Assembly (NCBI GenBank): GCA_017510525.1
Contig: JAFWNC010000018.1
Coordinates: 4,408 to 68,407, forward strand
Source: Clostridia bacterium
GTDB taxonomy: Bacteria; Bacillota; Clostridia; TANB77; CAG-508
DNA length: 64,000 nt
Direction: 5' to 3'
This document shows positions 4,405 through 56,454 of this stretch, piece after piece. The position numbers and the translations under genes are program-made. The notes below the pieces were generated by a model that saw only the letters and a program-made list of their open reading frames with translations, did no database searches and was not told the origin of the DNA. Positions within the stretch are counted from its first letter, which is position 1. Every line of letters starts with the position of its first letter.

Positions 4405-6598
4405 TTATCTTTTTCTCTTAACTTCATAAACACTAGGAACTCTTCTTAACATATTCATAACCTTATTTAAATCATCCAAATTAACAAGCTCAATATTAAC
4501 ATCAACAATAGCAATTCTCTCTTTTGTTGTTTTAGTATTAAAACCTAAAATATTATATTTAGCTCCAGTAATCTCTTTAATAATATCAGCTAACAATCCA
4601 GTTCTATCATTAGCATAAACCTGAATTCCAACACCAAAATTAGTATTAATAGCATTTTCCCAATGAACATCAATCATTCTGCTTTCTTCTGTAAGTAAAT
4701 CTTTTACATTAACACAATCAGCCCTATGAACTGAAACGCCTCTACCTTTTGTAATATAACCAATAATATTATCACCAGGAAGTGGATTACAACACTTAGA
4801 TAATTTTACTAAACAATTATCAATTCCTTCAACAACAACACCATTTTGAGATGGTTTATGATGAACCTTCTTTTTAGCCAATTCCTGAATTTTAGCGTCA
4901 ATATCTTCCTCATTATGTTCTTTTCTATACTCTTCTAAAAGTCTAGCAACAATCTTACTAGGAGAAATAGCACCAAACCCAACACTTGAATACATATCAT
5001 CTAAAGAATTATACTTATATCTTTCAAGAGCAGAATTAACCCATTCTTGTTTAAATAAATCAGAATGTTTCATTCCTATCTTCTTTATTTCTCTTTCGAC
5101 TGCATCTTTACCTTTTTCAATGTTCTCTTCTCTCTCAGCCTTTTTAAACCACTTCTGAATTCTATTTCTAGCAACAGAACTTTTAACAAATTTAAGCCAA
5201 TCACGGCTAGGTCCATTAGAAGTATCAGAAGTAATAATTTCAACAATATCACCATTTCTTAATCTAGTAACAATCGGAACCATTCTCGTATTTATCTTAA
5301 CTCCAACCATTCTATTTCCAACTTCTTCGTGAATTGCATAAGCCATATCAATTCCAGTACTTCCTCTTGGAAGAACCTTTATATCACCCTTTGGAGTAAA
5401 AACATAAACTTCATCTTCAAACAACTCTTTTTTCAAATTATCAATAAATTCACTTGGACTCTCAGTATCTTTCTGCCACTCCAAAGTTTCTCTAAGCCAT
5501 GAAAGCTTATCCTCTTCAACAACAACAGCCTTTTTTGTTCCCTTATAACTAGCCTCTTTATAAGCCCAATGCGCAGCAATACCATATTCAGCAATTTTAT
5601 GCATATCATATGTACGGATTTGAACTTCAAAAGGAGTAGTTTTATGACCAATTAAAGTTGTATGTATTGATTGATACATATTCTTTTTAGGCATAGCAAT
5701 ATAATCTTTGAATCTTCCAGGCATAGGATTATATTTATCATGAACAATACCCAAAACAGCATAACAATCTCTAACAGAATGAACTAAAATTCTAAGAGCA
5801 AATAAATCATAAATCTCATCTAAAGTTTTATTATCCCTTTTCATCTTTCTATAAATACTATATAAATGTTTTGCCCTACCAGTAACTTCAGCATCAATCT
5901 TAGCTTTCTTAAGCTCTACTCTTATTTCATCCATTACATTTTCAATAAAAGTAAGTCTTTCTTCTCTTTTTTGATCCAACCCTTTAACAATTTCATGATA
6001 TTCCTCAGGATATAGATATTTAAAAGCCAAATCCTCTAGCTCCCACTTCAAAGAATAAATACCAAGTCTATTAGCAAGAGGAGCATATAAATCCATTGTT
6101 TCTTTAGCATTTGCAATTTGTCTTTCTCTAGATAAAAACTTTAAAGTTCTCATATTATGAAGTCTATCTGCAAGTTTAATAAGAATAACCCTAATATCTT
6201 TACCCATAGCAAGAAACATTTTTCTATAATTTTCAATCTGTTGTTCTTCAACAGAAGTATATAACATTTGTCCGAAGTTTTGTAACACCATCAACTAAAA
6301 CAGCAACATCTTCTCCAAATTCTCTAACCAAATCATTTCTAGTAGCATCAGTGTCTTCAACAACGTCATGTAAAAGAGCAGCACAAATAGTCTCAGCATC
6401 TAAACCAAGACCAGACAAAATATAAGCAACATTTAGAGGATGAATAATATATGGCTCACCTGATTTTCTACACTGATCACCATGTTTTTCTACAGCATAA
6501 TCATAAGCCTTACGAATCATTTTAGTATCAATTCGTCTGTTCTTCTCTTTAGCTGTTTTTATAACATCCTCAATTGTAATATTTTCATCAACAACCAT
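4405..6598 (-). CDS. relA: Bifunctional (p)ppGpp synthetase/hydrolase RelA/SpoT (HD + synthetase + TGS + ACT), interrupted by a +1 frameshift at 6272-6274 (extra C before a conserved Gly codon)
   Basis: Two ORFs, 6248..6598 (HD domain N-terminus) and 4405..6294 (remainder). Zero frame reads VTKL-RTNVIYFC-stop; removing the C in CTT C GGA CAA gives VTKLGQMLYTSVEEQQIENYRKMF, which is the conserved RelA sequence. GGAGGAG RBS before ATG 6598. Confidence 0.85.
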
Positions 6599-8415: not shown

Positions 8416-8442
8416 AAGGACGACCAATGGTCGCCCCTACAA
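8416..8442. repeat. Module B hairpin (GGACGACCAATGGTCGCCCCTAC), reverse-loop orientation, downstream of pilin-like paralog 1
   Basis: Near-palindromic GC hairpin; the homologous copy downstream of paralog 2 is at 15063-15085. Confidence 0.6.
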
Positions 8443-8457
8443 GAATCATATTAAATT

Positions 8458-9972
8458 TTAAAACTTACTAGGATCAACTTCAATTGTTCCATAATAACCA
8501 GAATTTTCAACCAAAGTAGCAACCGCCTCATTTTCAACATAAACAGTTTCTATATCTCCAAAAGCACCATTTCCTATAGTTATAACACTTGATGGGATAT
8601 TTATTGATGTTAAGCTTTCACAACTAGAAAATGCTAATTCGCCTATACTTGTAACACTTGATGGAATATTTATTGATGTTAGGCAAAAACAACCAGAAAA
8701 TGCACAACTATCAATAGTAGTGACACTTGATGGAATACTAATTGATGTTAAACTAATACAGTCCTGAAATGCATTAGTGCCTATACTTGTAACACTTAAT
8801 GGGATATTTATTGATGTTAAATGATGACAACTAATAAATGCACTGTCACCAATACTTGTTACACCTGAAGGAATTGAAATTGATTTTAAATCAGCACATC
8901 CACTAAAATCATTATTTCCTATACTTAATAAAGAATTTGGTAATGTTACATATTCAACTCTATGAATACTGTCAAAAAATCTATTTAAATTTGTAATACT
9001 ACTTTGTGATGCAAAAATAACATTTGTTCTTGGTAGTGATTTAAGATCTTGGTTTGTTTCATAATCACTTGCTACAAGAGTTGTAACACTAGCTGGAATT
9101 ATTAACGATGATTCATCAGAACTTGTTGCTCCATTTTTTTGAGTATACGCAGATCCTGCAGATAAATTTGGAACATATTCAAAATCACCATATCCATATA
9201 TACTCCATGGAGCCCATCTACTCATTTCTAATTCTGAGTCATAAGGTATACTAGGATATTTCAATCCTGTAACACTATAAGTTTCATTATTATGTTCAAC
9301 CTGATAAGGAACAACCAATTTTCTTAATTTTGTAGCAACTTCTTGAGCTTCTTGTGCTGATTGAATTGTAGTTCTTCCTGGCTCTAAAATATTATCAAAA
9401 TTTAAACCTGTAGCTGTAGCTGTTTTATTTGTATCATCATATGTATATGTAAATAAACTTTCACAAGCTTCCATTTCCTCTTGCGTTGCTAAATTTCCAT
9501 ATTGACTCTCAATCATAGCTGATGATGAACCGCCCCCTGATGATCCTCCACCTGATTGATTTGAACTTTCTGATGACTTTGTTCTTCCTAAAATACTTCC
9601 ATCATCAGCAATTTGGAAATCATATCCTTTATATGTAATTATATAATTTTCTGTGTCAAAAGTTGCATCTGGATCTAATTCTATATTTAGCTTAATTTGT
9701 CCATAATCTTCATCAAACAAATAATCTCTAAAGCTTCCAACATAATCACTTGCTTTATAATCTATTTGAACTGCAGAAATAGCTAATCTTAATTCCTCCT
9801 CTATCTCTGATTCCTTAGAAGTCTCTTTTGCCTCATTGCTTCTCTTTAAAATACCATTATCACCAACTACCATTGCAATAGTTACACCTGCTAAAATCAA
9901 TAAAACAATAATTGTTATAACAAGTGCAATTAAGGTAATACCCTTTTTACCTTTGAAATTCAATAATCTCAT
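8458..9972 (-). CDS. Surface protein with prepilin-like N-terminal hydrophobic segment, Ser/Gly-rich linker and C-terminal BspA-type leucine-rich repeats (paralog 1)
   Basis: N-terminus MRLLNFKGKKGITLIALVITIIVLLILAGVTIAMVVGDNGIL resembles a class III (pilin-like) signal peptide lacking Glu+5. C-terminal tandem repeats of about 23 aa (SINIPSSVTSIG.xAF) match the BspA-type LRR. Strong GGAGGAG RBS. Confidence 0.6.
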   Translation of the reverse strand: MRLLNFKGKKGITLIALVITIIVLLILAGVTIAMVVGDNGILKRSNEAKETSKESEIEEELRLAISAVQIDYKASDYVGSFRDYLFDEDYGQIKLNIELDPDATFDTENYIITYKGYDFQIADDGSILGRTKSSESSNQSGGGSSGGGSSSAMIESQYGNLATQEEMEACESLFTYTYDDTNKTATATGLNFDNILEPGRTTIQSAQEAQEVATKLRKLVVPYQVEHNNETYSVTGLKYPSIPYDSELEMSRWAPWSIYGYGDFEYVPNLSAGSAYTQKNGATSSDESSLIIPASVTTLVASDYETNQDLKSLPRTNVIFASQSSITNLNRFFDSIHRVEYVTLPNSLLSIGNNDFSGCADLKSISIPSGVTSIGDSAFISCHHLTSINIPLSVTSIGTNAFQDCISLTSISIPSSVTTIDSCAFSGCFCLTSINIPSSVTSIGELAFSSCESLTSINIPSSVITIGNGAFGDIETVYVENEAVATLVENSGYYGTIEVDPSKF

Positions 9973-10059
9973 TAGTTTTCTCCTCCTTTTATCTTTTGTT
10001 TCATTATAAAACTATTATAATTTTATCTATAAAAAAATAAAAAATCAATACCTAAAATC

Positions 10060-11163
10060 CTATTTTTCATATATTTTCTTAATACTTAAACACATATCCT
10101 TAATATCATACCCTCTGCTTGCAATTTCTTTATAAACGTTCTCTCTATCAATAATATTATGACTTTCATTACATATTTTTTGAGCAATATTATAAGCACC
10201 ATCATTTATATCAATTGGAAAATAAGATGTTATCTTAACTTCATCAGGTAATGTATCTGAACCAAAAACTATTACCCCATTTGTTTGAGCTTCAACTATA
10301 GCTATTCCAAACCCCTCAGAAATGCTAGGAATAATCAAACAATCCATACAATTCAATAACTCATTAACATTTTCTCTAAAACCTAAGAACAAAACGTTAT
10401 CAGAAATTCCTAATCTATCAACCTTTTTCTCAATCGAACTTCTTAACTCTCCATCACCAATCAACAATAAAACACTATTTTCATCTACTTTCTGGGTCTC
10501 ATAAAAAATATCTATTAATAAATCATGATTTTTAACAATATCAAATCTTCCAACATGTCCATAAACAGTTTTACCATCAAGATTTAATTCTCTCCTAAAT
10601 CTTTCTCTAACTTCTTTATTAAACTTAAATTTATCAATATCTATACCATCTTTTATTATTTTAATTTTTCCCTTATCAATAAATTTTTTCGTAAATAAAG
10701 ACTCTCTTGAGACCAAAGAACAAGCTAAATGTTCTTGAGTAACTTTTAAATAAATAGGACTCAAAACTGTTTTAATAAATCTTTTAAAATCACTTTGTTT
10801 AGGAACACTATGAGAATGAACAATAATCTTTTTTGCCCCTGTAATTTTACTTATTAAAGCAACTTGAAAAGAAAACAGAAAAACAGAAGAATTAATATGA
10901 ACAACATCAAACTTATTCTCTTTTAAAAACTTATAGAGTCTGCTTAAATACTTAATTTTACCACTCAAGCTTTTTCTGCTAATTCCTAAACTATGTACAA
11001 CTCCACCTAATCTAACTATTTCTTTTTCAGAATCTTTAAAAGGAATATCATTTGGAGTTAAAAAATGGAATTCAAATCCCTTATCAAATTTTTTAAAGAT
11101 TTCAAATTCCATTTTTTCAATTCCGCCAAACTCTTCTCCCATGCTAACAAACAATATTTTCAT
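10060..11163 (-). CDS. Glycosyltransferase family 4 (GT1 fold)
   Basis: Start at MKILFVSMGEEFGGIE (ATG 11161-11163) with GAGAAGG RBS. C-terminal GT1 motif region (GxxGxG...EGFGIAIVEA). 4-nt overlap with the upstream gene. Confidence 0.7.
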   Translation of the reverse strand: MKILFVSMGEEFGGIEKMEFEIFKKFDKGFEFHFLTPNDIPFKDSEKEIVRLGGVVHSLGISRKSLSGKIKYLSRLYKFLKENKFDVVHINSSVFLFSFQVALISKITGAKKIIVHSHSVPKQSDFKRFIKTVLSPIYLKVTQEHLACSLVSRESLFTKKFIDKGKIKIIKDGIDIDKFKFNKEVRERFRRELNLDGKTVYGHVGRFDIVKNHDLLIDIFYETQKVDENSVLLLIGDGELRSSIEKKVDRLGISDNVLFLGFRENVNELLNCMDCLIIPSISEGFGIAIVEAQTNGVIVFGSDTLPDEVKITSYFPIDINDGAYNIAQKICNESHNIIDRENVYKEIASRGYDIKDMCLSIKKIYEK

Positions 11164-11900
11164 AAACTCAACCTTCTCTTTATAGCATAATAAATATAAC
11201 ATAAATAACAATACAAACGTTTAAAAATTCCTAAATCTTCTCTTTTGAAAATATTCCAAGTTCTTTTTAGAGCTTTAAATTTATTAGATGAAAGAGAATT
11301 CTCTCCAACTCTATATATAGCAATAGTATCAGTTATTCCATAAGCAGTAATTCCAGGTTTTAAAACTTGCCACCAAGTTGCCATATCTTGTCCTCTTCTA
11401 ATATTAGGCATATAAATATCTTCTTTTTTCAAATGTTCCATATTAAGCATAACAGTTGATGTAAAAATCGTATGATTTTTTAGTAATTGATTATAATTAA
11501 CAGAACTTGGAACACGAGCCTTTTTGGTTTTTCCATTTTTTAAATATGCATAACCACCATAAACAAAAGTATAATCATTTTCCTCCATTAATTTAACTTC
11601 TCTTTCAACCTTATCTTCAACCCAATAATCATCAGAATCAATATAACAAATATACTCACCAGAAGAATTATCAACACCAATATTTCTAGCAACAGCAGCA
11701 CCAACATTTTCTTCTAGTTTAATAATTTTAATTCTATTATCCTTTAACCCCTCAATAATTTGAACAGTATTATCAGTACTTAAATCATCAACAACAACTA
11801 TTTCAAGATTTTTATATGTCTGATTAATAACACTATTTAAACACTCTTCAATATGTTTATGACTATTATGAACAGGAATAACTACACTAACTTTTTTCAT
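11160..11900 (-). CDS. Glycosyltransferase family 2
   Basis: MKKVSVVIPVHNSHKHIEECLNSVINQTY...VVDDLSTDNT...YIDSDDYW matches the GT2 DxD / QxxRW-type architecture. Confidence 0.75.
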   Translation of the reverse strand: MKKVSVVIPVHNSHKHIEECLNSVINQTYKNLEIVVVDDLSTDNTVQIIEGLKDNRIKIIKLEENVGAAVARNIGVDNSSGEYICYIDSDDYWVEDKVEREVKLMEENDYTFVYGGYAYLKNGKTKKARVPSSVNYNQLLKNHTIFTSTVMLNMEHLKKEDIYMPNIRRGQDMATWWQVLKPGITAYGITDTIAIYRVGENSLSSNKFKALKRTWNIFKREDLGIFKRLYCYLCYIYYAIKRRLSL

Positions 11901-12664
11901 ATATTAACATCTTTCTTTATATAATCTTTTGAACCCTTAACCATTAATTTAAAAGCATTAAAAAACTTTATCTCTTTCAAAACCTCTTTATGTCTTAACA
12001 AATATTGCAATATTAAAACAATTCTAAATCTTCTACTAATACCAGCAAAAACAGCACCTTTATCATAAAAGAATTTCTCATTATAACCATTAAACCATGT
12101 AGAATTTGTTTGATAAACAATTCCAATATTTTTAGTACTTGAATATATTTTTAATCCTTTTTTTAGGCAATCAACTAAAAAAATAGTATCCTCTCCACTT
12201 TGATATTTAGCTCCGGCCCCAAAAAGAGTATTAAATCTAATATTCCCAACACTTTCACGTCTAAAAGCAATTCTAGAACTAGTATATCTTAAAACATTAT
12301 AAAAATGCAACCTTTTATTCTTCTTATTAAACTTTATTTCTCTATTAGGACTATCAATATTAAAAGTAATAATATCAGCATCCTTATTCTTATCAAACTC
12401 TTCTAAAATAAGTCTTTCGTAATCTTTGTTATAAACAACATCATCATCACATAAAACAATAATATCGCCTTTAACATTATCTAGTCCTTTATTTCTGCTA
12501 TTAGACAATCCACGTTCATCACAAGAATAAATCCTAAAATTTTTATATTGTGTAAAATCATTTTTATCACATTGATTAATAACAACACAATCACTTGTAA
12601 TATTCATCTTATCTAAATTATCTAATCTTAAATTCATAACTGATAATAAAACTTCTAACTTCAT
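11897..12664 (-). CDS. Glycosyltransferase, GT-A fold (family 2-like)
   Basis: DxD-containing core (VLCDDDVVY). Translationally coupled (4-nt overlaps) to the neighbours on both sides. Confidence 0.55.
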   Translation of the reverse strand: MKLEVLLSVMNLRLDNLDKMNITSDCVVINQCDKNDFTQYKNFRIYSCDERGLSNSRNKGLDNVKGDIIVLCDDDVVYNKDYERLILEEFDKNKDADIITFNIDSPNREIKFNKKNKRLHFYNVLRYTSSRIAFRRESVGNIRFNTLFGAGAKYQSGEDTIFLVDCLKKGLKIYSSTKNIGIVYQTNSTWFNGYNEKFFYDKGAVFAGISRRFRIVLILQYLLRHKEVLKEIKFFNAFKLMVKGSKDYIKKDVNI

Positions 12665-14934
12665 TTATTTCCCTTTTCATTTACATATTTAGTATAATAC
12701 GTTTTAAACGATTCAATCTCTTTCTCAGAACTATCTATTCCAGCACCATTTTCTAAATTTTTCATATTTTCATCATATTCTTCTTTTAAAAGACTTTCAA
12801 ATTCATCTAAAAACTCTTTAAACCTATCTTTTTTAGAATTATCATCTGGCAACTTAGAAATATACTCCTCTAAATTATTAATACTTTCTACAATAACAGA
12901 AGTTCTACCCATTATATAGTTTAAATACAGCTTCTTATTAAACTCTATTTTTTTCATTCTATCTAAACCGAAACTTAAATACTCATCTAACTCATCCTCA
13001 GAAAGCTCATCAATATCTTCAAATATTTTAGTGAAATACAAATAATACATTTCTGTTTGCATATCATAAGGTTCATTTTTCATAAACCTTTGCAAATTAT
13101 CTAAACATTCCTTTGTATCTCCATCATTTTTATATTGATTAATCATTTCATTATAACAATACTTGCTTTTATAAGAGGTTATTCTTCTCTTATCACTAAC
13201 ATCAGACACGCAATATTCAGAAATACAATTTCTAACATAAAAGCTAAAAACGAATACCAAAAATACTACTAAAAAATAATCAATAAATTTAGGCAATTTG
13301 ATTTCTTCTTTATCATCAAAAATAAGAATAGCAAAATAAGTATAAACAATAACTTGAATAACCATAAAAGACATACTAAAATCAAAAACAAAACACTCAA
13401 GTACCATAAAAAATAAACCAATTATTATTAATAATTTATCTTTCATGCTATCTTTATTACCTAAAAACTGTTTCACTAATTTTACAATTAATGAAATTAA
13501 TACTATACAAAAAGCTATAACCCCAACAATTCCATAACTTATTAATAATTCAAAGAAATAACTATGAGACTCTTTTAAATCAGCACTATATTCCTGAACT
13601 GTAGAAGACAACACATGCCAAGTATTTCCACCATGTCCAATTATAGGACTTTGTTTTGCCATCTTAATACAATCACTATAAATATAACCTCTCTCCTTAA
13701 GGCTCTTTTCTTTTAAAGAATACTCGTAAAACATTTTACCAATTTTATTTGGAATATATTTAAAATTAATAATATATTCATCATCATTTATGTAGCACTT
13801 TCTAAGATTTATCTTACCATGGAAATCATTTAGAATTCTCAAATTAATATAACTAAAATCTTCATTAGGCGTAAATTTAATTTCAACCTTGCCATTTACA
13901 TCTCCAAACTTAGTTGAAGATATTTTACTCTCCTTAAAATATTTATTACCTTCAATTATCTGAAGCTCAAAAGCAGAATTTTTAAGCACTTTAGCAACAT
14001 CTCTTGTTTCAACATCAAGCTCTAGTTTATATTCCTCACCTTCTTTAAAATTATATTTCAATCTAGTCCAGTAACTTTGTTCTGTAATCTCAAATGGCTC
14101 AGAAACCCTTAAAGAAAATGCTAAATATGAACCAATAATTACAATCAAAACTAATCCAACCCCACCAAATATTTTCCAATATTTCTTAATATATTTTCTT
14201 CCAGAAACTAAAAAATATATTCCTAAAATAAGTAACAATAGAGCAATAATAGTTCTGGCTATTGTTATCCAAATTATATAAAAGATAAATAAAGAATATA
14301 AAACACAAATCCCCTTAACAACCTTATATTTATTATTTTTAATAACATTAATTGCTAAAAACAAACAAAAAGACATATAAATAGCAACAGCATTAGCATA
14401 GCCAAAAGTACCAGAAAATAAAGAAGATTGCTCATATCCAAGATTTAACCATGAAGTAAACTTATCTAAATAATTTCCATTAATCATGTCTAAACCTAAA
14501 ACAACTGGAATTAAAGAACTAAAAAGTGTAACATAAACAATAAAATTCACTTTTTTATTTGAATCTATTGAATTTCTAGCCAAAATATAAACAGAATAAA
14601 TAAAGAAATATTTAATTATAAAATCAATAGTATCAGAATAAGAACAATAAGTTCTAAAAATTAAAGGTAAAAACATTGTAGCCATAAAAACTAAAACAAA
14701 ACCATCAACCTTATTTTTAATAAAAATTCTCTCACCTTTGTTTCTTATCTTTTTTACACTTAAAAACAGAATAATAAAAAACATCAAAACACAAATAGGT
14801 AAAACCCTTAATTCCTTTGAGTTATCACCTATTATAAAATTAAAAACAATAATAACAATACTAAGTAAAATTAAACCAAAGTATTTTAAAAAATTTCTTA
14901 TACAAAACTTAAAAAAATCTATAACCTTTTCCAT
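12661..14934 (-). CDS. Multi-pass membrane protein with O-antigen ligase (Wzy_C / WaaL / PglL-like) domain plus large extracytoplasmic insertion and C-terminal soluble domain
   Basis: More than 10 predicted TM helices. The signature HSYFFELLISYGIVGVIAF (H..Y...L.E.G..G) is characteristic of the Wzy_C family, which includes O-antigen ligases and pilin O-oligosaccharyltransferases. Confidence 0.6.
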   Translation of the reverse strand: MEKVIDFFKFCIRNFLKYFGLILLSIVIIVFNFIIGDNSKELRVLPICVLMFFIILFLSVKKIRNKGERIFIKNKVDGFVLVFMATMFLPLIFRTYCSYSDTIDFIIKYFFIYSVYILARNSIDSNKKVNFIVYVTLFSSLIPVVLGLDMINGNYLDKFTSWLNLGYEQSSLFSGTFGYANAVAIYMSFCLFLAINVIKNNKYKVVKGICVLYSLFIFYIIWITIARTIIALLLLILGIYFLVSGRKYIKKYWKIFGGVGLVLIVIIGSYLAFSLRVSEPFEITEQSYWTRLKYNFKEGEEYKLELDVETRDVAKVLKNSAFELQIIEGNKYFKESKISSTKFGDVNGKVEIKFTPNEDFSYINLRILNDFHGKINLRKCYINDDEYIINFKYIPNKIGKMFYEYSLKEKSLKERGYIYSDCIKMAKQSPIIGHGGNTWHVLSSTVQEYSADLKESHSYFFELLISYGIVGVIAFCIVLISLIVKLVKQFLGNKDSMKDKLLIIIGLFFMVLECFVFDFSMSFMVIQVIVYTYFAILIFDDKEEIKLPKFIDYFLVVFLVFVFSFYVRNCISEYCVSDVSDKRRITSYKSKYCYNEMINQYKNDGDTKECLDNLQRFMKNEPYDMQTEMYYLYFTKIFEDIDELSEDELDEYLSFGLDRMKKIEFNKKLYLNYIMGRTSVIVESINNLEEYISKLPDDNSKKDRFKEFLDEFESLLKEEYDENMKNLENGAGIDSSEKEIESFKTYYTKYVNEKGNK

Positions 14935-15007
14935 ATAAACAACTTCCCTTTTTTATATATTAATAATTTATACATAAAAAAACAAAAAATCAATATCTTT
15001 CTATAAA

Positions 15008-15087
15008 AAAACGTAGTGGTCGTTGTTCCCGAAGACCCATGTTCTCCAACGACATACAAAAAGGGCGACCAATGGCCGTCCCTACAC
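15008..15087. repeat. Degenerate module A plus module B hairpin (GGGCGACCAATGGCCGTCCCTAC), downstream of pilin-like paralog 2
   Basis: Homologous to 8416..8442 and its flank; the paralog 1 and 2 3' flanks are alignable. Confidence 0.55.
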
Positions 15088-15102
15088 AAATCATATTAAA
15101 CT

Positions 15103-16797
15103 TTAAAACCTACTAGCATCAACAACAATCGTTCCATTATAACCAGAATTTTCAACCAAAGTCTTAACCGCCTCAGTTTCAACATAAATAGTCGCATATA
15201 CACAATCAAATGCTTTTTCACCTATACTAATTACACTTGATGGTATATTAACCGAAGTCAAATTGCTACAATTTTCAAAAGCACTTTTACCTATAGTAGT
15301 TACACTTGATGGTATATTAATTGAAGTTAATCCATTACAATAATCAAATGCATATTCCCCAATACTAGTTACACTTGATGGTATATTAATTGAAGTTAAA
15401 CTATAACAACCTAAAAAAGTACTATCTCCGATACTAGTTACACCTGATGGTATATTAATTGAAGTTAAACTCAAGCACTCATAAAATGCACCATTTCCAA
15501 TGCTAGTTACAGTTGATGGAATATTTACTGATGTTATACTCTTGCACCAACAAAAAGCACCATTTTCAATTGATGTAGCACCGGAAGGTATATTAATAGA
15601 AAGTAAATCTATACATGAGGAAACATCTACATCTAATATAGAATCTGGTAATACTACATTTTCAACTCTATATACATTATTCAAAAATCTATTTAAATTA
15701 GTTATACTACTTCCAGATGAAAAAATAACATTAGTTCTTGGTAACGAATATCCCAATTCATTTGAATCATCGCTAGGAATAAGAGTTGTTACACTTGCTG
15801 GAATTATTAATGATGATTCATCAGAAGTTGTTGCTCCATTTTCACTAGTATAATAAGAACCTGCAGATAAATTTGGAACGCATCCGCTTGAAAAATCACA
15901 AGATCCTCCACTACTCCAAGGTGCCCATCCACTAGCACCATCGGCATAATCAGTCGACGTAGTCGGAGCATTTGGATACTTCAATCCAGTAACACTATAC
16001 ATTTCTCCATTATGCTCAACCTCATAAGGAACAACTAATGTTCTTAATGTTTCTGCTATTTGGGCAGCATCTTCAGCCGATTGTATATCTGTTCCATGCT
16101 CTGCATATGTTGGAACAATATTGGCAAAATTTAATCCTGTTGCTGTAGCTGTTTTATTTGTATCATCAAAAGTATATGTAAATAAACCTTCACAGGCTTC
16201 CACTTCCTCTTCAGTAACTAATCCGCCATATTGTTCCTCAATCATAGCTGAACTAGAACTTTCACCTGAACTTCCAGCCACGCTCCAATCTAATTTTCCA
16301 CTTGTTCCTATTACTGCACTTGTTAATTCTTTATTTGATGTATCTTTTACACTTACCTCATATACAGTTTCACTCTCGACAGTTTTTGTATCTGCTGTTA
16401 CTGTATATTCTCCTGCTTTATTTGCCCTTCCTGCATTAATCTGAACACATACATATTCTGCTGCATTATTATAAGTTGTTGCTACAACTGTATTATCAGC
16501 CACTTGGGCAACACCATTTTCCTTCATAGCCTTAATTTCACCGTTGCTACTTGAATCAGAAGTTCTAAAATTAATTGTCTGATATTCTATAACCCAATCT
16601 GCAACTTTTAAATCAATTTCTTCCTGTATCTTTGCAATATTCGTAGTCTCTTTCGCTTCATTGCTTCGACTCAAAATTCCATTATCACCAACTACCATTG
16701 CAATAGTTACACCTGCTAAAATCAATAAAACAATAATTGTTATAACAAGTGCAATCAATGTAATACCCTTTTTACCTTTGAAATTCAATAATTTCAT
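15103..16797 (-). CDS. Surface protein with prepilin-like N-terminus and BspA-type leucine-rich repeats (paralog 2)
   Basis: First about 40 aa nearly identical to paralogs 1 and 3. About 8 LRR units (SINIPSGVTSIG...). Conserved C-terminal 30 aa (VENSGYNGTIVVDASRF). The upstream 95 bp, including the RBS, are identical to those of paralog 1. Confidence 0.6.
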   Translation of the reverse strand: MKLLNFKGKKGITLIALVITIIVLLILAGVTIAMVVGDNGILSRSNEAKETTNIAKIQEEIDLKVADWVIEYQTINFRTSDSSSNGEIKAMKENGVAQVADNTVVATTYNNAAEYVCVQINAGRANKAGEYTVTADTKTVESETVYEVSVKDTSNKELTSAVIGTSGKLDWSVAGSSGESSSSAMIEEQYGGLVTEEEVEACEGLFTYTFDDTNKTATATGLNFANIVPTYAEHGTDIQSAEDAAQIAETLRTLVVPYEVEHNGEMYSVTGLKYPNAPTTSTDYADGASGWAPWSSGGSCDFSSGCVPNLSAGSYYTSENGATTSDESSLIIPASVTTLIPSDDSNELGYSLPRTNVIFSSGSSITNLNRFLNNVYRVENVVLPDSILDVDVSSCIDLLSINIPSGATSIENGAFCWCKSITSVNIPSTVTSIGNGAFYECLSLTSINIPSGVTSIGDSTFLGCYSLTSINIPSSVTSIGEYAFDYCNGLTSINIPSSVTTIGKSAFENCSNLTSVNIPSSVISIGEKAFDCVYATIYVETEAVKTLVENSGYNGTIVVDASRF

Positions 16798-16927: not shown

Positions 16928-17272
16928 TTAAGAAATTATTACATTTCCGTTTTCAATAGAAAGACTTACATTTCCCATATTAAGATCTCTTTTAAATCTC
17001 TCTACCATTTTCTCAGAAATCCGTTTCTTGCCGTAGTATTCAAGAATCTGTTCCCTGATATCAAAAGTAATTTTTCTACCATTTTCATCAGAAACAGTCA
17101 ATTTTACCTGAGCTGGCAAGCCATCAATATGGTACTGATCATTAGAATAAAATGTTTTTGCACCATTTTCATCATGATTTCCACCATACCGAACCTCTGT
17201 CTTTGACTTAACATAAGTTATTTTGTCAATGAAAATTTTTGCCATAGAAACCCCTCCTAATAGGCAATACAC
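16928..17272 (-). CDS. Hypothetical 114-aa protein; paralog of 50081..50398
   Basis: AGGAGGGG RBS 8 nt upstream and a terminator downstream. Shares a conserved 5' leader and protein blocks (IDKITYVK, DENG, ILEYYGKK) with 50081..50398. Contains two in-frame CGG Arg codons (17189-17191, 17021-17023). Confidence 0.5.
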   Translation of the reverse strand: MYCLLGGVSMAKIFIDKITYVKSKTEVRYGGNHDENGAKTFYSNDQYHIDGLPAQVKLTVSDENGRKITFDIREQILEYYGKKRISEKMVERFKRDLNMGNVSLSIENGNVIIS

Positions 17273-23292: not shown

Positions 23293-23334
23293 AAAAACAC
23301 CCAGAAAAGATTTCCCTTTTCCAGGTGATATTAA

Positions 23335-23688
23335 AATAAGTAAGTCTATAAGCCGGGTTCTGTCTTAAATAGCCATTTATCTAGGATATATATTACTATA
23401 TACCTCAAGCCACTCAAAAACATTCAAAGAAGTGACGAGCAGTCATACTCCCCTTTGTGTTTAAGGTGTTGCTCCAGGTGGGGTTTACACGAACAAGGAA
23501 TGTCACCATTCCTCCGGTGAGCTCTTACCTCACCTTTTCACCCTTACCAAAACGGCGGTTATTTTCTGTTGCACTTTCCTTAAGGTCACCCTCACTGGAC
23601 GTTATCCAGCACCATTGCTCTATGGAGCCCGGACTTTCCTCCCGCGAACCCTTTCGGAATTCGCCAGCGACTATTCGGCTTACTCTAA
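23335..23688 (-). ncRNA. rnpB: RNase P RNA, bacterial type A architecture
   Basis: The minus strand contains GGAGGAAAGUCCGGGCUCCAUAGAGCA, AGUGCAACAGAAAAUAACCGCCG, GGUAAGGGUGAAAAGGUGAGGUAAGAGCUCACC, GUAAACCCCACCUGGAGCAA and ACAGAACCCGGCUUA, in the order and spacing of E. coli M1 RNA. P1 pairs AGAGUAAGCC with GACUUACUU. Ends are within about 5 nt. Confidence 0.85.
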
Positions 23689-23737
23689 TATCTATTTTAA
23701 GAGCATTTTTCAAATTTGTCAAGCAAATACATATTCT

Positions 23738-23844
23738 AATCCAATATATACCAACTTTTTAGTGTGTCAAGGTGTTTTTCGACGTAGTCGAAAAATAGCA
23801 GAGCGTCCGCAGACTAAACTAAAAAGTTGGTATATATCGGATTG
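23738..23844. repeat. Family D structured element, copy D2. Outer stem AATCCAATATATACCAACTTTTTAGT / ACTAAAAAGTTGGTATATATCGGATTG covaries relative to the other copies.
   Basis: Core CAAGGTGTTTTTCGACGTAGTCGAAAAATAGCAGAGCGTCCGCAG. Located 50 nt upstream of the rnpB 5' end. Confidence 0.6.
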
Positions 23845-25305: not shown

Positions 25306-26625
25306 TTATTGTAACTCGTATACTCCATCTTCATCCGTACCAGCTAGACTAACTCCAGATTTTAAGCAAACTAGCGGACGGAACCCATATTTACTGGATT
25401 TAAAGGTGCCAACTGCCACAGTACCTCCAAAATGTGCACTTATCAAGCTGCTCGTAAAAACATTAGAATTTGAAGCAAGCCACATAGCATCCGAGACTCT
25501 TTCAGAGTTATCTATAAAATATAAATTATCATCTTCTGTACTAAACCCTGAAACACGTGCCTCAAAAGAACCTGAACCTCTTGATGTAAAATATCCGTAA
25601 CTATTGTTTTCATTATAATTCATTTTTACTTCTGTATCAAAATTTGTATCGTTTGCATGTTTTGCATTATATGAGGCTGAAAATTGCTCTAGTGTTGGTC
25701 CTCCTACTACATAGTTGATTTTATTAGTATATGTACTAGGTATATAATCTGTTGTCCATTTACTTGTCCATGCTGTTGTATCTAACATATATGCTACAGC
25801 TTTTATATGATTATATCCTTTTTGAGTATCACTTAAATCCGTTCTATTTGCCCATTTGTTATAATTTGAACTTAATAACGAATTTCCTGATATATCTATT
25901 GCCCCATTATAATCTGCTAATAAATCATTATTCCAATACGCTTTATAACTTCCATCAGCTGTTAGACTGTGTTTCGTCGTTCTGCCTTCCACTTTTGGTT
26001 CACTTTGTGGACACATACTGTTTGGTATATAATCTGCTGCAATCAAATACACATTACTTTCATCGTTTAAAAATATTCTAAAATCATTTGTAGTATCACT
26101 ATCTCCGTTTATATCTACACCTATATCTACGTAATCTCCATAATTATCTGTTGTTATTGTTACTGTCGATGAAGGTGATGGAGATGGTGATACATCTGGA
26201 GTCGTTGTTTCTCCTCCTGTAACTTCACTATTTCCATCATTCCATAATATATGTCCATTAGGTTCAATCATTCCTGAAGTTCTTATTCCGTCTTTTTCTG
26301 CTGTTATTGTCATTTTTTCTGAATCTGCCTCTATTTCTATTCCGTTTATCGTTTTTCCGTCTATTTGTGTCGCTACATACTCTCCTGCACTTCCTGTTAC
26401 CTCTCCGCTATCCTTAGTATGATATTCTGCCACTAAATCAGCTGCCTCTAAATCAACCTCTTCCTGAATCTTCTTAATATTTGTCGTATCCTTTGCCTCT
26501 CTTGACCTTGATAAAATACCATTATCGCCAACAACCATTGCAATAGTGACACCAGCAAGTATCAATAAAACAATAATTGTGATAACAAGAGCTATTAAAG
26601 TAATACCCTTTTGTTTTTTCAACAT
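25306..26625 (-). CDS. Pilin-like N-terminus surface protein, paralog 3 (no LRR; Pro/Ser/Thr linker and divergent C-terminal domain)
   Basis: N-terminal 50 aa (KGITLIALVITIIVLLILAGVTIAMVVGDNGILSRSREAKDTTNIKKIQEE) nearly identical to 8458..9972 and 15103..16797. Linker PSPSPSSTVTITT. Confidence 0.5.
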   Translation of the reverse strand: MLKKQKGITLIALVITIIVLLILAGVTIAMVVGDNGILSRSREAKDTTNIKKIQEEVDLEAADLVAEYHTKDSGEVTGSAGEYVATQIDGKTINGIEIEADSEKMTITAEKDGIRTSGMIEPNGHILWNDGNSEVTGGETTTPDVSPSPSPSSTVTITTDNYGDYVDIGVDINGDSDTTNDFRIFLNDESNVYLIAADYIPNSMCPQSEPKVEGRTTKHSLTADGSYKAYWNNDLLADYNGAIDISGNSLLSSNYNKWANRTDLSDTQKGYNHIKAVAYMLDTTAWTSKWTTDYIPSTYTNKINYVVGGPTLEQFSASYNAKHANDTNFDTEVKMNYNENNSYGYFTSRGSGSFEARVSGFSTEDDNLYFIDNSERVSDAMWLASNSNVFTSSLISAHFGGTVAVGTFKSSKYGFRPLVCLKSGVSLAGTDEDGVYELQ

Positions 26626-35461: not shown

Positions 35462-36653
35462 TTATTTTATCAATTCTAATGTATCTTTTGCTATCATCAT
35501 TTCTTCATCTGTAGGGATTACATATACTTTTATCTTTGAATTTGGACTAGATATTAATATTTCTTCTCCACGTATTTTGTTTTTCTCTTCATCAATCTCT
35601 AATCCCATAAATTTCAAGTTATCACAAATTTTCTTTCTTGAATGGAATTGGTTTTCACCAACACCAGCTGTAAATGTAATTACATCAATTCCCTGTAAAG
35701 TAACAGCATAACTAGCTATGAATTGTGCAACTCTATATGCATATACATCTAATGCTAAGCTTGCTCTTTCATTTCCTTCTGCAGATGCCCCCTCAATATC
35801 TCTAAAATCAGCTGAAACGCCAGAAATTCCGAAAACTCCAGATTGTTTGTTTAATAATTTCTCAACTTCTTCAGTATTTAAATTTGCTTGATTCATTATA
35901 TAAGTTACAACAGAAGGATCTAAATCACCACTTCTAGCACACATTGGAATTCCACCAAGTGGAGTAAGTCCCATACTTGTATCTAAACTCTTTCCATCTT
36001 TCATGGCACATAAACTTGCACCGCTGACCTAAATGACAATTTACTATTTTTAAATCTGTTCTTCCCTCTAAAGCAGCAACTCTGTTTGCAATATATTTAT
36101 GTGATGTACCATGTGCTCCATATTTACGAACTCCATATTTTTCATACATCTCATAAGGAACTGGATATGTAAAAGTCTTAGCTGGCATTGTTTGATGAAA
36201 AGCAGTATCAAAAACAACCGCCATTTTTGCATTAGGCATTTCCTTTTGACAAGCTCTAATTCCAAGTATTGCTGCAGGATTATGAAGAGGTGCTAATTTA
36301 CTACAATCTTCAATTTTTTCAATTACATCCTCAGTAACTAAAACAGATTTATCAAAATATTCACCACCATGAACAATTCTATGACCAACAGCCTCAATTT
36401 CATCTAAGCTCTTTATAGTATTATATTTTGGACTTAATAACTGATCAACAATAATTTTTAAAGCCTCTTCATGGTTACTAACCTTTTCCTCAATAACAAC
36501 CTTCTCACCATTAACCTTATGAGTTAAGAAAGAATTCTCACCAATCCTTTCATAATTTCCTTTTGCCATAACCTCTTCTTTTTCCATATCAATCAATTGA
36601 TACTTCAAAGAAGAACTCCCGCAATTAACAACCAAAATTTTCATTTTTTCCAT
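35462..36653 (-). pseudogene. ackA: Acetate kinase, second tandem copy, interrupted by a +1 frameshift at 36021-36023 (extra C: CAG C GGT)
   Basis: ORFs 35934..36653 (N-terminal 239 aa) and 35462..36004 (C-terminal 180 aa). The intact paralog has CAG GGT GCT (HLGQGAS) at the same place; here CAG CGG TGC gives HLGQRCKFMCHER-stop. Whether this is a true pseudogene or a recoded gene depends on the nature of the recurrent C insertions. Confidence 0.75.
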
Positions 36654-36669
36654 CCTTTCATTTTATATA

Positions 36670-37863
36670 TTATTTATTTATAATTTCATTTGTTTCCTTT
36701 GCAATAATCAATTCCTCCTCAGTAGGAACAATCCAAAGCTTAACCCTAGAATCATCCTTAGACAACTCATATTCCATATTAGTAACCTTATTCTTCTCCT
36801 CATCAAGTTCAACACCCATGAAATTCAAATAAGAACAAATCATTTTTCTCTCATCAGGACCTTTTTCACCAACACCACCAGTGAAAGTAATAACATCAAC
36901 ACCATTCATAGTAACAGCATATTTTCCAATATATTGAGCAATTAAATAACAATAAACCTTCATTGCTAAATCAGCTCTCTCATTACCATTTGGAATCTCT
37001 CTTAAAATATCTCTATTATCATTTGAAATTCCAGAAATGCCATGTAATCCAGACTTTTTATTTAAAATCCTATCCATTTCCCTAGGAGTTAAATTTTCCT
37101 GTTCCATTATATATGTAACAACAGATGGATCCAAATCACCACTTCTTGAACCCATTGGAATTCCACCTAAAGGAGTTAACCCCATACTAGTATCAACACT
37201 TATACCATTTTGAATTGCACAAATACTAGCACCCTGACCTAAATGACAGCTTATTATTTTTAAATCTTTTATATCTTTATTTAAAATTTCAGCAATTCTA
37301 TGTGATACATATTTATGAGAAGTACCATGAGCACCATACTTACGAACACCATATTTTTCATAATATTCATATGGAATAGGATAAATATAATGCTCCTTTG
37401 GGATAGTTTGATGAAAAGCAGTATCAAAAACAGCAACATTAGGAACATCAGGTAATATTTTTTGAATTGCTCTTATTCCCTGTAAATGTGCTGGATTATG
37501 TAATGGAGCGTATCTAATTGCATCTTCTATTCCTTTAATAACATCCTCATCAATTATAGTCGCCTGCTTAAATCTCTCACCACCATGAACAACTCTATGT
37601 CCAACAGCTTCAATTTCATTAAAGCTTTTTATAGCTGGATAATCAGAATTAACGAGTTCTTCCATTACTATTTTTAGAGCTTCTTCATGAGAATAAACAT
37701 TTCTTTCTTTTTTATACTTTTCTCCATTAATTTTATGAGTAATTATTGAATTATACTGACCAATTCTTTCAATATTTCCTTTTGCAAGTACTTTCTCATT
37801 TTCCATATCAATTAAGCAATATTTCAAAGATGAACTTCCACAATTTACAACTAATACCTTCAT
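36670..37863 (-). CDS. ackA: Acetate kinase
   Basis: 397 aa. MKVLVVNCGSSSLKY N-terminus; conserved His, Arg and Glu residues throughout. Confidence 0.9.
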   Translation of the reverse strand: MKVLVVNCGSSSLKYCLIDMENEKVLAKGNIERIGQYNSIITHKINGEKYKKERNVYSHEEALKIVMEELVNSDYPAIKSFNEIEAVGHRVVHGGERFKQATIIDEDVIKGIEDAIRYAPLHNPAHLQGIRAIQKILPDVPNVAVFDTAFHQTIPKEHYIYPIPYEYYEKYGVRKYGAHGTSHKYVSHRIAEILNKDIKDLKIISCHLGQGASICAIQNGISVDTSMGLTPLGGIPMGSRSGDLDPSVVTYIMEQENLTPREMDRILNKKSGLHGISGISNDNRDILREIPNGNERADLAMKVYCYLIAQYIGKYAVTMNGVDVITFTGGVGEKGPDERKMICSYLNFMGVELDEEKNKVTNMEYELSKDDSRVKLWIVPTEEELIIAKETNEIINK

Positions 37864-46224: not shown

Positions 46225-47131
46225 CTAAATAATTGCATTTAAAAAATCATCACTATTAAAAACTTCCATATCATCAATCTGTTCACCAACACCAATAAAT
46301 TTAACTGGAATCTGGTTTTCTTCTACAATACCGATACAAGCCCCACCTTTTGCCGTTCCATCAAGCTTTGTTAAAACTAATCCAGTTATATCAGTAACTT
46401 CTTTAAAAGCCTTAACCTGTAAAATAGCATTTTGACCTGTGGTTCCATCTAGAACCAATAGTACTTCTCTGCTAGAATCAGGTAATTCTTTATTTATAAC
46501 TCTTTGAATCTTAGCAAGCTCGTCCATTAAATATTTTTTATTATGAAGTCTACCTGCTGTATCACAAATTAGAACGTCTGCATTCTTCTCTTTAGTAACC
46601 CTTATAGCATCAAAAACAACAGAAGCAGGATCACTTCCTTCATCAGCCTTAACCAAATCACATCCGAGCACGGTTAGCCCATATCTCAATCTGCTCAACC
46701 GCAGCTGCTCTAAAAGTATCAGCTGCAGCAATAACAACTTTTTTTCCATCTTTTTTTAATCTATTAGCAATCTTTCCAATAGAAGTAGTTTTACCAACAC
46801 CATTAACACCTACAACTAAGATAACAGAAGGTGTTGTATCAAGTTTTAGTTCCTTATTAGGAACATCAAGCATTTTTCTCATTTCTTCTTTTAATGCATT
46901 TTTTACATCTTCTTCACTTTCAATTTTCTCTCTTTTTATTCTAGTTCTAAGTCCATCAATAATCTTTACAGAAGTTTCTACACCTAAATCAGACATAATC
47001 AATACTTCTTCAAGTTCTTCAAGTAAATCTTCATCAACCTTTCTAAAAGCACTAAAAACATTATTTATTTTATCTCCAAGAGATTCCTTTGTTTTACCAA
47101 GTCCACTCTTTAATTTATCAAAAAATCCCAT
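46225..47131 (-). CDS. ftsY: Signal recognition particle receptor FtsY, with a +1 frameshift at 46664-46666 (extra C: GCT C GGA TGT)
   Basis: ORFs 46658..47131 (N-terminal, with GVNGVGKTT Walker A and DTFRAAA) and 46225..46749 (C-terminal, with DTAGR and TKLDGTAKGG). Zero frame reads WANRARM-stop. Removing the C gives WANRAGCDLVKADEGSDPASVVFDAI, collinear with FtsY. Confidence 0.85.
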
Positions 47132-53688: not shown

Positions 53689-53764
53689 TGGAGCCATTAG
53701 GCGGAATCGAACCGCCGACCTACAGGTTACGAATCTGTTGCTCTACCAACTGAGCTATAATGGC
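53689..53764 (-). tRNA. tRNA-Thr (anticodon CGU)
   Basis: Minus strand GCCATTATAGCTCAGTTGGTAGAGCAACAGATTCGTAACCTGTAGGTCGGCGGTTCGATTCCGCCTAATGGCTCCA. 7-bp acceptor stem, D-arm GCTC/GAGC, anticodon loop TTCGTAA, T-arm GGCGG-TTCGATT-CCGCC, encoded CCA. Confidence 0.85.
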
Positions 53765-56040: not shown

Positions 56041-56454
56041 TTATAAATTATAATCTTTTACTTTTTTATATGTATAAATTGCAGATACTGATGTAGCTAT
56101 CATTAAAAATACAATTACTGAATTAGATCCTAAACCAGCATATGGAATATTGCTATTAGATGTGTTTTTATTAGTATTATTAACTCCACCTAAATTTGAA
56201 TTAGTATTTATATTAGTGTTTGCATTAGAATTTAAATTTGAATTTGTATTTGAATTCGTATTAGCATTTGAATTTGTATTTGAATTTGTATTTTCATTAT
56301 TTGAATTCAAATTAGCACTTCCACTATTACTATTACTACTAACTGTTGATATTGTAGAAATTGTTTCAGCACCAAAAACTCTTGTTGCAACAGAAACAAT
56401 TAAAAGAATCATAAACAATAATGTAATTATTTTTAAACTATTAATTTTATTCAT
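56041..56454 (-). CDS. Small secreted/anchored Asn-Ser-Thr-rich low-complexity protein
   Basis: Signal peptide, (NSNT/NANT)n repeats and a C-terminal hydrophobic anchor. The plus-strand ORF 56150..56497 is its antisense artefact. Confidence 0.4.
   Translation of the reverse strand: MNKINSLKIITLLFMILLIVSVATRVFGAETISTISTVSSNSNSGSANLNSNNENTNSNTNSNANTNSNTNSNLNSNANTNINTNSNLGGVNNTNKNTSNSNIPYAGLGSNSVIVFLMIATSVSAIYTYKKVKDYNL

Follow-up and report, generated by a model that had tools for sequence, protein, structure and literature searches.

In a 64,000-nucleotide (nt) stretch of contig JAFWNC010000018.1 from an uncultured gut Clostridia bacterium (assembly GCA_017510525.1), which we call the window and whose numbering is used throughout, two genes for modular pilin-like adhesins flank a cluster of one Wzy_C gene and three glycosyltransferase genes. 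All six genes lie on the minus strand. Gene B (15103..16797; 564 amino acids, aa) comes first in the direction of transcription and gene A (8458..9972; 504 aa) last, and the gene order between them is Wzy_C-GT2-GT2-GT4. The first gene of the cluster (12661..14934) encodes a 757-aa membrane glycosyltransferase with a predicted WaaL fold, here called Wzy_C-757, a candidate O-oligosaccharyltransferase (O-OTase) that may glycosylate the adjacent pilin-like proteins. The other three encode a GT2 glycosyltransferase of 255 aa (11897..12664), a TuaG-like GT2 glycosyltransferase of 246 aa (11160..11900) and a GT4 glycosyltransferase of 367 aa (10060..11163). A preliminary description of this DNA had named these features, and each was found on the minus strand where it had been placed.

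The two GT2 proteins were recognized by profiles with E-values of 5.8e-39 (TuaG-like) and 5.5e-13, and the GT4 protein by Glycos_transf_1 (E 1.6e-24). In NCBIfam, TuaG and TuaC are among the top matches for the GT2 and GT4 proteins; TuaG, the best match of the TuaG-like protein, scores 247 bits, under the 400-bit cutoff. Orthologues of the 255-aa protein are encoded directly after the Wzy_C gene in three related loci (L002, L016 and L027; L numbers denote loci and P numbers proteins of relatives), and the 246-aa protein shares 59-83% identity with orthologues in L002, L010, L016 and L027. The four genes of the cluster had been described as translationally coupled, and with the GT4 start placed at the ATG at 11163, three of three junctions are indeed 4-nt ATGA overlaps; this start is the one called on metagenome copies, and the mechanically derived open reading frame (ORF) extends to a TTG at 11211. 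A terminator-like hairpin with a 10-bp stem and a T run (8416..8438, minus strand; GGGGCGACCATTGGTCGTCC) closes the unit after A, and a hairpin of closely similar sequence follows B (15066..15078, minus strand; GGGACGGCCATTGGTCGCCC), which suggests that the duplication giving rise to A and B included the 3′ untranslated region. A search for a terminator between GT4 and A found none; A may therefore share a transcript with the operon.

The pilin-like proteins

Proteins A and B align over their full length (54% identity, E 4e-176), share 87% identity over residues 1-60, both contain the string KKGITLIALVITIIVLLILAGVTIAMVVGDNGIL, and are thus paralogs, as had been proposed. In A, the pilin module (residues 1-130; nt 9583-9972) is followed by the Ser/Gly linker SSESSNQSGGGSSGGGSSSAM (residues 133-153; nt 9514-9576), a middle domain and leucine-rich repeats (LRRs) at about residues 332-480 (nt 8533-8979). 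In B, the pilin module spans residues 1-172 (nt 16282-16797) and the Ser/Gly linker AGSSGESSSSAM residues 174-185 (nt 16243-16278), and the conserved middle domain precedes LRRs at about residues 394-545 (nt 15163-15618). The repeats of both proteins are of the BspA type, with matches to Pfam LRR_5 (PF13306) above the gathering score of 27.7 bits (A, 272 bits, E 6.6e-82; B, 178 bits, E 6e-53), so that the linkers and repeats of the preliminary description were both recovered. Low-complexity Ser/Gly linkers of this kind occur in nearly all proteins of the modular-pilin superfamily to which A and B belong.

A third member of this superfamily, C (25306..26625, minus strand; 439 aa), is encoded apart from the cluster and has a pilin module at residues 1-135 and a Thr/Pro/Ser linker at residues 137-153 (nt 26167-26217). 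It had been listed as a third paralog, which holds for its first 70-100 residues (83% identity with B over 69 aa and 52% with A over 101 aa), but the remainder is unrelated to A and B and has no LRR. The C-terminal domain of C (about 280 aa, ending ...GFRPLVCLKSGVSL) found no match in Pfam or NCBIfam. It recurs on many pilin-module proteins of close relatives (P0189, P0190, P0197, P0202 and P0203) and may be an adhesin or lectin-type module. C itself corresponds to P0199, which bears the NCBI name 'type II secretion system protein'. Besides A, B and C, an N-terminal query found nothing in the window better than E 2.5e-4, the best being the unrelated N-terminus of RNase Y.

All three proteins begin with a short basic leader ending in Gly at position -1 (MKLLNFKGKKG in B, MRLLNFKGKKG in A and MLKKQKG in C), followed by ∼20 hydrophobic residues with the alpha1N segment ITLIALVITIIVLLILAGVTIAMVVG. 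The Gly is residue 11 in A and B, where ITLIALVITIIVLLILAGVTIAMVVGDNGIL comes next. At position +5, where type IV pilins carry Glu, all three have Ala; the preliminary description had noted the lack of Glu+5 in calling the N-termini of A and B prepilin-like. A 77-residue N-terminal query matched at least 4,700 proteins, almost all of them from metagenomes or metagenome-assembled genomes (MAGs) and the few named ones from Clostridia. Some family members are named by NCBI 'type II secretion system protein' or 'prepilin-type N-terminal cleavage/methylation domain-containing protein', and in relatives the place of the LRRs is taken by FGE-sulfatase, Flg_new or unassigned modules. Of the NCBI matches nearest to the query, several (P0065, P0066, P0068 and P0118) are marked partial in MAG records. 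Because the repeated conserved 5′ ends of paralogs may break metagenome assemblies, MAGs probably under-count the family.

The same N-terminus is found in genes of pilus assembly operons. A complete operon in L007/L008 encodes a PilM/N fusion, a PilO-like protein, two pilins with this N-terminus (P0163, of 131 aa, and the product of a 136-aa gene), the prepilin peptidase PilD, two minor pilins, PilB, PilT and PilC; 3′ of the operon in L007 lie a ROK gene and then a 458-aa Wzy_C gene. Among 80 metagenome loci (416 kb) sampled solely by the peptide GITLIALVITIIVLLILAG, the gene carrying it, usually of 130-150 aa, adjoined PilD, PilMN or PilB in 14. Major pilins without Glu5 are unusual among bacterial type IV pili. 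In this lineage, the pilin-sized genes within complete pilus operons, candidates for the major pilins (L007 10001-10830; also L030, L045, L048, L065, L089 and L100), have Ala at +5, and one minor pilin of the L007 operon has Asp (KG|FTGID). For GVTIAMVVGDNGI, a DNA pattern specific to the lineage matched nothing among metagenome contigs, and a literature search with the N-terminal peptide string found no papers.

The Pfam N_methyl profile (PF07963/IPR012902) does match A, B and C, but at scores (14.5, 14.5 and 21.1 bits, respectively) that all fall below the gathering score of 21.2 bits. Pilins of the L007 operon score 17.9-18.6, between A/B and C. Since pilins inside a complete pilus operon are also sub-threshold, we conclude that the profile under-scores the whole lineage and that InterPro-based surveys would miss pilins of the A/B/C type.

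About 30 N-terminal residues are invariant among proteins with unrelated C-termini, and the synonymous sites of their genes differ, which argues for protein-level selection far beyond the needs of a plain membrane anchor. Such conservation points to helix packing in a filament or recognition by the assembly machinery. Recent gene conversion was considered as another source of the conservation and rejected: the DNA of A and B is near-identical in this region, whereas synonymous differences are seen in C and at other loci. In the predicted structure, the pilin module has a pilin-like fold, with a long N-terminal helix packed on a four-stranded antiparallel sheet. On this evidence, we regard the N-terminus as a true type IV pilin signature in this lineage. 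A modular pilin has been defined as an N-terminal pilin module, a linker and a functional module that is not specific to pilus biology (PMC8179133), and A, B and C fit this definition, without Glu5.

The Wzy_C protein

The Wzy_C signature reported for the 757-aa protein was borne out by the Pfam profile (PF04932), which scores 37.3 bits over residues 406-476 (gathering score 31.7), and a WaaL fold is predicted for the model of the protein, in keeping with membership of the Wzy_C superfamily. The closest solved structure is a WaaL ligase. When the whole model was submitted to Foldseek, spurious giant proteins came out on top and the matches to WaaL and to carbohydrate-binding modules (CBMs) alone were usable; a sequence search of the PDB gave nothing meaningful (best E 0.22). 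The CBM-like match concerns a beta-sandwich at residues 281-387 (nt 13774-14094), whose model resembles CBM16, CBM22, CBM4 and CBM29. A second additional domain, at residues 575-757 (nt 12664-13212), follows the 13th transmembrane helix and consists of helical repeats that match alpha-solenoid and tetratricopeptide repeat (TPR)-like proteins by fold only. With 13 predicted transmembrane helices and the K/R-rich loops inside, both domains would lie outside the cell. Both PglL and WsfB, a Gram-positive S-layer enzyme, have been reported to carry a C-terminal TPR motif (PMC2943079).

The catalytic loop (residues 396-458; nt 13561-13749) contains the invariant residues R415, E455 and H457. Among 32 sequences compared, R415 and H457 never vary, and 29 have a basic residue at position 227 (Arg in 23, Lys in 6). 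A conserved trio on the periplasmic face has been described in Escherichia coli WaaL (R215/R288/H338) and in PglL (R224/R298/H349) (PMC3643930). Position 227, R415 and H457 may be its counterparts, matched by their place in the topology. A PglL-like identity, which the preliminary description had raised, was not upheld: neither PglL_A (PF15864/IPR031726) nor Wzy_C_2 (PF11846) gave a match to Wzy_C-757 at E ≤ 10, and Wzy_C_2 is sub-threshold even in relatives of 736 and 812 aa (15-17 bits vs 28.5). We therefore rejected assignment of Wzy_C-757 to the PglL family. An exhaustive homolog search returned 295 representative clusters at E ≤ 1e-10, in which Wzy_C-757 itself is represented only by an identical fragment of 234 aa; among the 150 family clusters listed, most proteins are 700-1,000 aa long. 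Altogether the family has some 300-1,100 representatives.

Conserved linkage of pilin-like and Wzy_C genes

We compared gene order at 13 independent loci defined by the enzyme (the window, L001, L002, L004, L010 and L012-L019). By a strict automated count, a gene with the pilin N-terminus lies directly upstream of Wzy_C on the same strand in 5 of the 13, a number that rises to 7 if the frameshifted gene of L016 and an N-terminally truncated homolog in L019 are included; in the same loci, the pilin N-terminus heads 9 of 236 other genes (Fisher p = 2.6e-4). Over all loci, such adjacency in the same orientation occurs in the window, L001, L002, L010, L016, L018 and L024-L028, and in L019, where the pilin-like gene is degenerate. 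In the window, L001, L010 and L017, a further gene of this type is found downstream. The C-terminal modules of the neighbors vary, being LRRs in some and FGE-sulfatase-like in others (PF03781 in P0246), and the same adjacency is seen again in genomes with Wzy_C proteins of no more than 26-50% identity. Taking pilin-like relatives of B as the starting point (two LRR-type and one non-LRR) led to adjoining Wzy_C genes in three of three cases. As a control, we searched the 80 randomly sampled pilin-like loci (416 kb), and no Wzy_C homolog was found. These comparisons of gene order support the conclusion that the link of pilin-like genes to this Wzy_C family is conserved and specific.

A universal association was considered as well and rejected on account of P0320 (L149), a distant member of the Wzy_C family with no pilin-like gene on its short contig. 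Some loci hold two long-type Wzy_C paralogs, of 744 and 743 aa or of 736 and 812 aa (L001 7747-12232; L024-L026), and in L024-L026 the two Wzy_C genes are accompanied by two to four pilin-LRR genes. Such paired Wzy_C genes interleaved with pilin-LRR genes look like multiple enzyme-acceptor pairs.

A close relative (L027/L028; GCA_017511565.1) carries a locus at the same chromosomal site, with RNase Y 97% and the ABC exporters 83-85% identical to those of the window. Its two GT2 proteins and its GT4 protein have been kept (75%, 83% and 62% aa identity, respectively; 79% nt identity). In contrast, its pilin-like protein, P0191, has a different C-terminal part made up of a novel domain, and neither BLAST nor phmmer detects a relationship between its Wzy_C protein, of 435 aa, and the 757-aa protein. 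The enzyme has thus been exchanged along with the pilin-like gene, while the glycosyltransferases have stayed. The 435-aa protein does match the Wzy_C protein encoded after the L007 pilus operon (28% identity, E 8e-28). Members of this short lineage, of 435-458 aa, are encoded in L007 (17936-19312), after PilC and the ROK gene, and in L027 (9337-10644), directly downstream of the pilin-like gene. By sequence comparison, then, two Wzy_C lineages associate with pilin genes.

Pathway context

The glycan clusters of relatives are more complete than that of the window. A small Bac_transf priming enzyme is encoded in L012-L016, L018, L019, L024 and L026, Wzx in L001, L002, L010, L016, L018 and L019, and UDP-galactopyranose mutase, epimerases and UDP-glucose dehydrogenase are found as well. 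The presence of Bac_transf and Wzx suggests that the glycan is assembled on a lipid carrier and flipped. The preliminary description had named a lipid-linked pathway, together with closer homology of the Wzy_C protein to WaaL/O-antigen polymerases, as evidence against its proposal. This does not discriminate, since PglL, TfpO and PglS use lipid-linked donors too. Among annotated neighbors in the window and in the pilin-linked loci, whose ORFs were scanned in part, we found no chain-length regulator (Wzz/CpsCD) and no LCP ligase; the only Wzz-type gene, with a weak AAA_31 match, is in L004, a locus without a pilin link. A Wzy repeat-unit polymerase is expected to travel with Wzz or CpsC/D and, in Gram-positives, an LCP ligase and to co-vary with the glycosyltransferases. 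The context of Wzy_C-757 does not have this pattern, an argument from gene context that is still compatible with polymerase activity.

Neighboring genes

The window has a G+C content of ∼30% and carries nearly all of its genes on the minus strand. Core genes of a Clostridia-type chromosome are present (recJ, relA, two ABC exporters, RNase Y, RNase P RNA, dprA, folD, uppP, ackA/pta, ligA, ftsY, der, plsY and cmk), and identical copies of the locus were found on 9 independent metagenome contigs. The relatives drawn from the genome collection are uncultured Clostridia MAGs throughout, several of them named for ruminant gut samples.

A small conserved ORF (16928..17245, minus strand; 105 aa from its ATG) lies at the edge of the cassette, upstream of B. 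Its homolog in L027 (13359-13676; 65% identity) is downstream of GT4, so that the ORF marks a rearranged cassette boundary. The class A RNase P RNA (23333-23686, minus strand; 278.6 bits) lies between rny and spoVS, and a plus-strand ORF that overlaps it (23457-23762) is therefore considered spurious. A single tRNA gene, for tRNA-Thr (CGT), is present at 53689-53764 (minus strand).

Three minus-strand genes are split. A second acetate kinase copy (35462-36653), directly downstream of intact ackA (36670-37863), is divided into two overlapping ORFs of 239 and 180 aa and is either a tandem duplicate turned pseudogene or an assembly frameshift. The ftsY gene (46225-47131) is also in two overlapping ORFs (157 and 174 aa), which is more likely sequence error than biology because a frameshift would hit an essential gene. 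The relA/spoT region (4405-6598) is called as a separate 116-aa HD-domain ORF and a 629-aa ORF that overlap by ∼45 nt, and this split may be real since it is called alike on independent metagenome contigs (L020 20200-21695). Finally, a 137-aa protein (56041-56454, minus strand) has a signal-like N-terminal segment, a long Asn/Ser/Thr low-complexity run (NSNTNSNANTNSN...) and a C-terminal hydrophobic anchor.

Discussion

The best explanation for these results is that Wzy_C-757 is a dedicated O-OTase for the adjacent modular pilins, by analogy with TfpO, TfpM and PglS, and we regard the case for and against this explanation as about evenly balanced. The proposal of the preliminary description that the cluster builds a glycan and transfers it onto the pilin-like adhesins is favored by the identity of the pilins, the conserved linkage, the co-replacement and the TfpO-like gene order; it is not helped by the lack of PglL_A and Wzy_C_2 in the enzyme, by the generic nature of the linkers or by the absence of a priming transferase and a flippase from the window.

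If Wzy_C-757 acts as a pilin O-OTase, a priming phosphoglycosyl transferase, encoded elsewhere here and in the cluster in relatives, would start an oligosaccharide linked to undecaprenyl diphosphate, and the three cytoplasmic glycosyltransferases of the operon would lengthen it. A Wzx flippase, likewise encoded elsewhere here and in-cluster in relatives, would carry the oligosaccharide across the membrane, where Wzy_C-757 would pass it en bloc to Ser/Thr residues of the neighboring pilin-like proteins. The most plausible acceptor would be the linker after the pilin module, in which SSESSNQSGGGSSGGGSSS and AGSSGESSSS are candidate Ser stretches. The CBM-like and helical-repeat ectodomains of the enzyme may hold the glycan and the protein acceptor. 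Prepilin peptidase would process the glycosylated proteins, which type IV pili could then present, either on the filament or at its tip. An acceptor site of the TfpO/TfpM type, a C-terminal Ser/Thr, was considered and rejected, because the C-termini of A, B and the neighbors at other loci are not Ser/Thr.

Several observations weigh against a dedicated pilin O-OTase. Neither the sequence nor the fold of Wzy_C-757 can separate an O-OTase from a ligase or polymerase, and the two PglL signatures are lacking. By tblastn, the window contains no priming transferase, no flippase and, as the preliminary description had said, no pilus assembly genes. The Ser/Gly linkers, being generic in the superfamily, are not specific evidence for glycosylation, and the C-terminal residue is Phe in A and B and D, L, R, M or F in other adjacent pilin-like proteins. 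Most pilin-like genes have no Wzy_C gene nearby, so any such enzyme could serve only a subset. The distant Wzy_C members of L004, L013, L014 and L149 have no pilin-like neighbor within the flanks seen, and those of L012 and L015 have none closer than 3-6 kb. Moreover, B has its own terminator-like hairpin ahead of the Wzy_C gene.

Some of these observations would be explained if the locus instead made a surface polysaccharide or teichuronic-acid-like polymer, with Wzy_C-757 as its polymerase or as a WaaL/TacL-type ligase and the pilin-like genes as mere co-residents of a variable surface island. We consider this less likely, although it is the strongest competitor. The Wzy_C domain is common to polymerases and ligases, the nearest solved structure is that of a ligase, and TacL is reported to be a Gram-positive Wzy_C protein able to ligate to a glycolipid (PMC5727136). 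The TuaG and TuaC matches of the glycosyltransferases, the classic Wzx-dependent gene set in relatives, and the four loci without a pilin-like gene in the flanks seen, one of which (L004) has the Wzz-type gene with the weak AAA_31 match nearby, are also consistent with polymer synthesis. However, adjacency is position-specific (directly upstream, same strand) and persists while the pilin-like protein's C-terminus switches between LRR and FGE-like modules. Furthermore, the Wzy_C protein of L027 co-varies with the pilin-like gene, whereas a repeat-unit polymerase would be expected to follow the glycosyltransferases; annotated neighbors at the pilin-linked loci include no chain-length regulator or LCP ligase; and the helical-repeat domain predicted on the extracytoplasmic side is of a type reported for protein-directed O-OTases (PMC2943079).

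It is also conceivable, but improbable, that the pilin-like proteins are partners of the glycan and not its acceptors, their LRR or FGE/lectin-like modules binding or organizing the glycan of the cluster, or the same glycan on other cells, so that co-inheritance would reflect the matching of ligand and receptor. The neighboring modules are ligand-binding folds, either LRR_5 or FGE-sulfatase-like, lectin modules are common in modular pilins (PMC8179133), and the enzyme itself has a CBM-like domain. Yet unrelated modules (LRR, FGE-like and the novel domain of P0191) occur beside the same enzyme family and conserved glycosyltransferases, so one glycan is unlikely to match them all, and what the neighbors have in common is the pilin module and linker, not the binding module. 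The last possibility, that the N-terminus is merely a Sec signal or membrane anchor of ordinary tethered adhesins, as the preliminary description had allowed, and that the flanking arrangement is a meaningless local duplication, would account for the missing Glu+5, the N_methyl scores under the Pfam threshold, the lack of pilus genes in the window and the terminator sequence shared by the recent paralogs A and B, since one duplication could explain both flanks, but we judge it very improbable because the identical N-terminus heads pilin-sized genes in complete pilus operons, with 14 such cases among 80 random loci, a pilin-like fold is predicted, ∼30 residues are invariant despite differing synonymous sites, and adjacency recurs with highly divergent Wzy_C proteins.

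Returning to Wzy_C-757 as a pilin O-OTase, we also put forward a broader proposal, held more tentatively than the assignment of the enzyme itself: that the two Wzy_C lineages constitute the first pilin-dedicated O-OTase system of monoderms, with a long lineage bearing two ectodomains and a short lineage at the ends of pilus operons, each swapped with its own acceptor as a cassette. The acceptors would form a very large, previously unrecognized superfamily of modular pilins without Glu5, serving as a general scaffold for LRR, lectin-like and other adhesin modules in uncultured gut and rumen Clostridia.

GP25, a type IV pilin from Ruminococcus albus, a rumen Firmicute, has been described as a glycoprotein (PMC3796261), and in the literature we searched no paper names an enzyme for pilin glycosylation in monoderms. 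The locus thus offers a concrete candidate enzyme-acceptor pair and, if our reading is correct, the first pilin-glycosylation system of this kind in a Gram-positive lineage. If active, Wzy_C-757 would be a new O-OTase scaffold with built-in glycan- and protein-binding ectodomains for use in glycoengineering. Independently of the enzyme, the pilin-like proteins point to a very large group of modular pilins without Glu5 in Clostridia of the gut and rumen, under-detected by domain databases. Such a group is relevant to the question of pilus assembly in the absence of the Glu5 salt bridge and to the adhesion of these uncultured bacteria.

Comparison with known systems

The closest analogy is with TfpO/PilO of Pseudomonas, TfpM of Moraxella and Acinetobacter and PglS of Acinetobacter, whose substrate is ComP. 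Like Wzy_C-757, these are Wzy_C/WaaL-like polytopic enzymes. The genes for TfpO, TfpM and PglS adjoin those of their pilin substrates (PMC12645811), the enzyme gene usually lying downstream in the same orientation, which is the gene order found here, and the glycan that these enzymes use is lipid-linked and supplied by a Wzx-type pathway (PMC12645811, PMC3643930). In our loci, too, the enzyme co-varies with the neighboring pilin-like gene. However, the O-OTases known to act on pilins, including these characterized enzymes, are all from Gram-negative Proteobacteria (PMC12645811), whereas the present candidate system belongs to monoderm Clostridia. In addition, Wzy_C-757 exceeds them in length by ∼300 residues, having a CBM-like sandwich within its catalytic loop and helical repeats in a C-terminal domain, and is related to solved structures by fold alone, with no detectable sequence match to any of them. 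Its candidate acceptors are large modular pilins that lack Glu+5 and the C-terminal Ser/Thr of TfpO/TfpM substrates.

PglL of Neisseria and other bacteria shares with Wzy_C-757 a Wzy_C core, in PglL with the conserved Arg/Arg/His to which position 227, R415 and H457 may correspond, and has a reported C-terminal TPR motif, and it glycosylates Ser in flexible low-complexity regions (PMC3643930, PMC2943079). It differs in carrying PglL_A and Wzy_C_2, both absent from Wzy_C-757. Although 21 of 31 PglL homologs adjoin pilin genes (PMC3643930), PglL itself is usually unlinked to its substrates, in contrast to the tight linkage of the Wzy_C-757 family. The WaaL ligase of Cupriavidus metallidurans (PDB 7TPG/7TPJ) is only 11% identical to Wzy_C-757 in sequence; the latter has two extra domains and a 13th transmembrane helix and comes from a monoderm, which has no lipid A-core acceptor.

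Two comparisons can be made within Gram-positive bacteria. The Wzy_C-type O-OTases that we found described there, WsaB and WsfB of Geobacillus and Paenibacillus, are predicted S-layer enzymes encoded in a glycosylation cluster near their surface-protein substrate (PMC2943079). Instead of a pilin, they are directed at an S-layer protein, with Tyr, Ser or Thr as the acceptor residue. For the acceptors, the nearest parallel is provided by the modular pilins PilB (vWA module) and PilC (lectin module) of Streptococcus sanguinis, in which a pilin module, a linker and an adhesion module are joined in a monoderm (PMC8179133). Although Ala replaces Glu+5 in A, B and C and most members of their family are encoded away from pilus operons, the three proteins have this same architecture.

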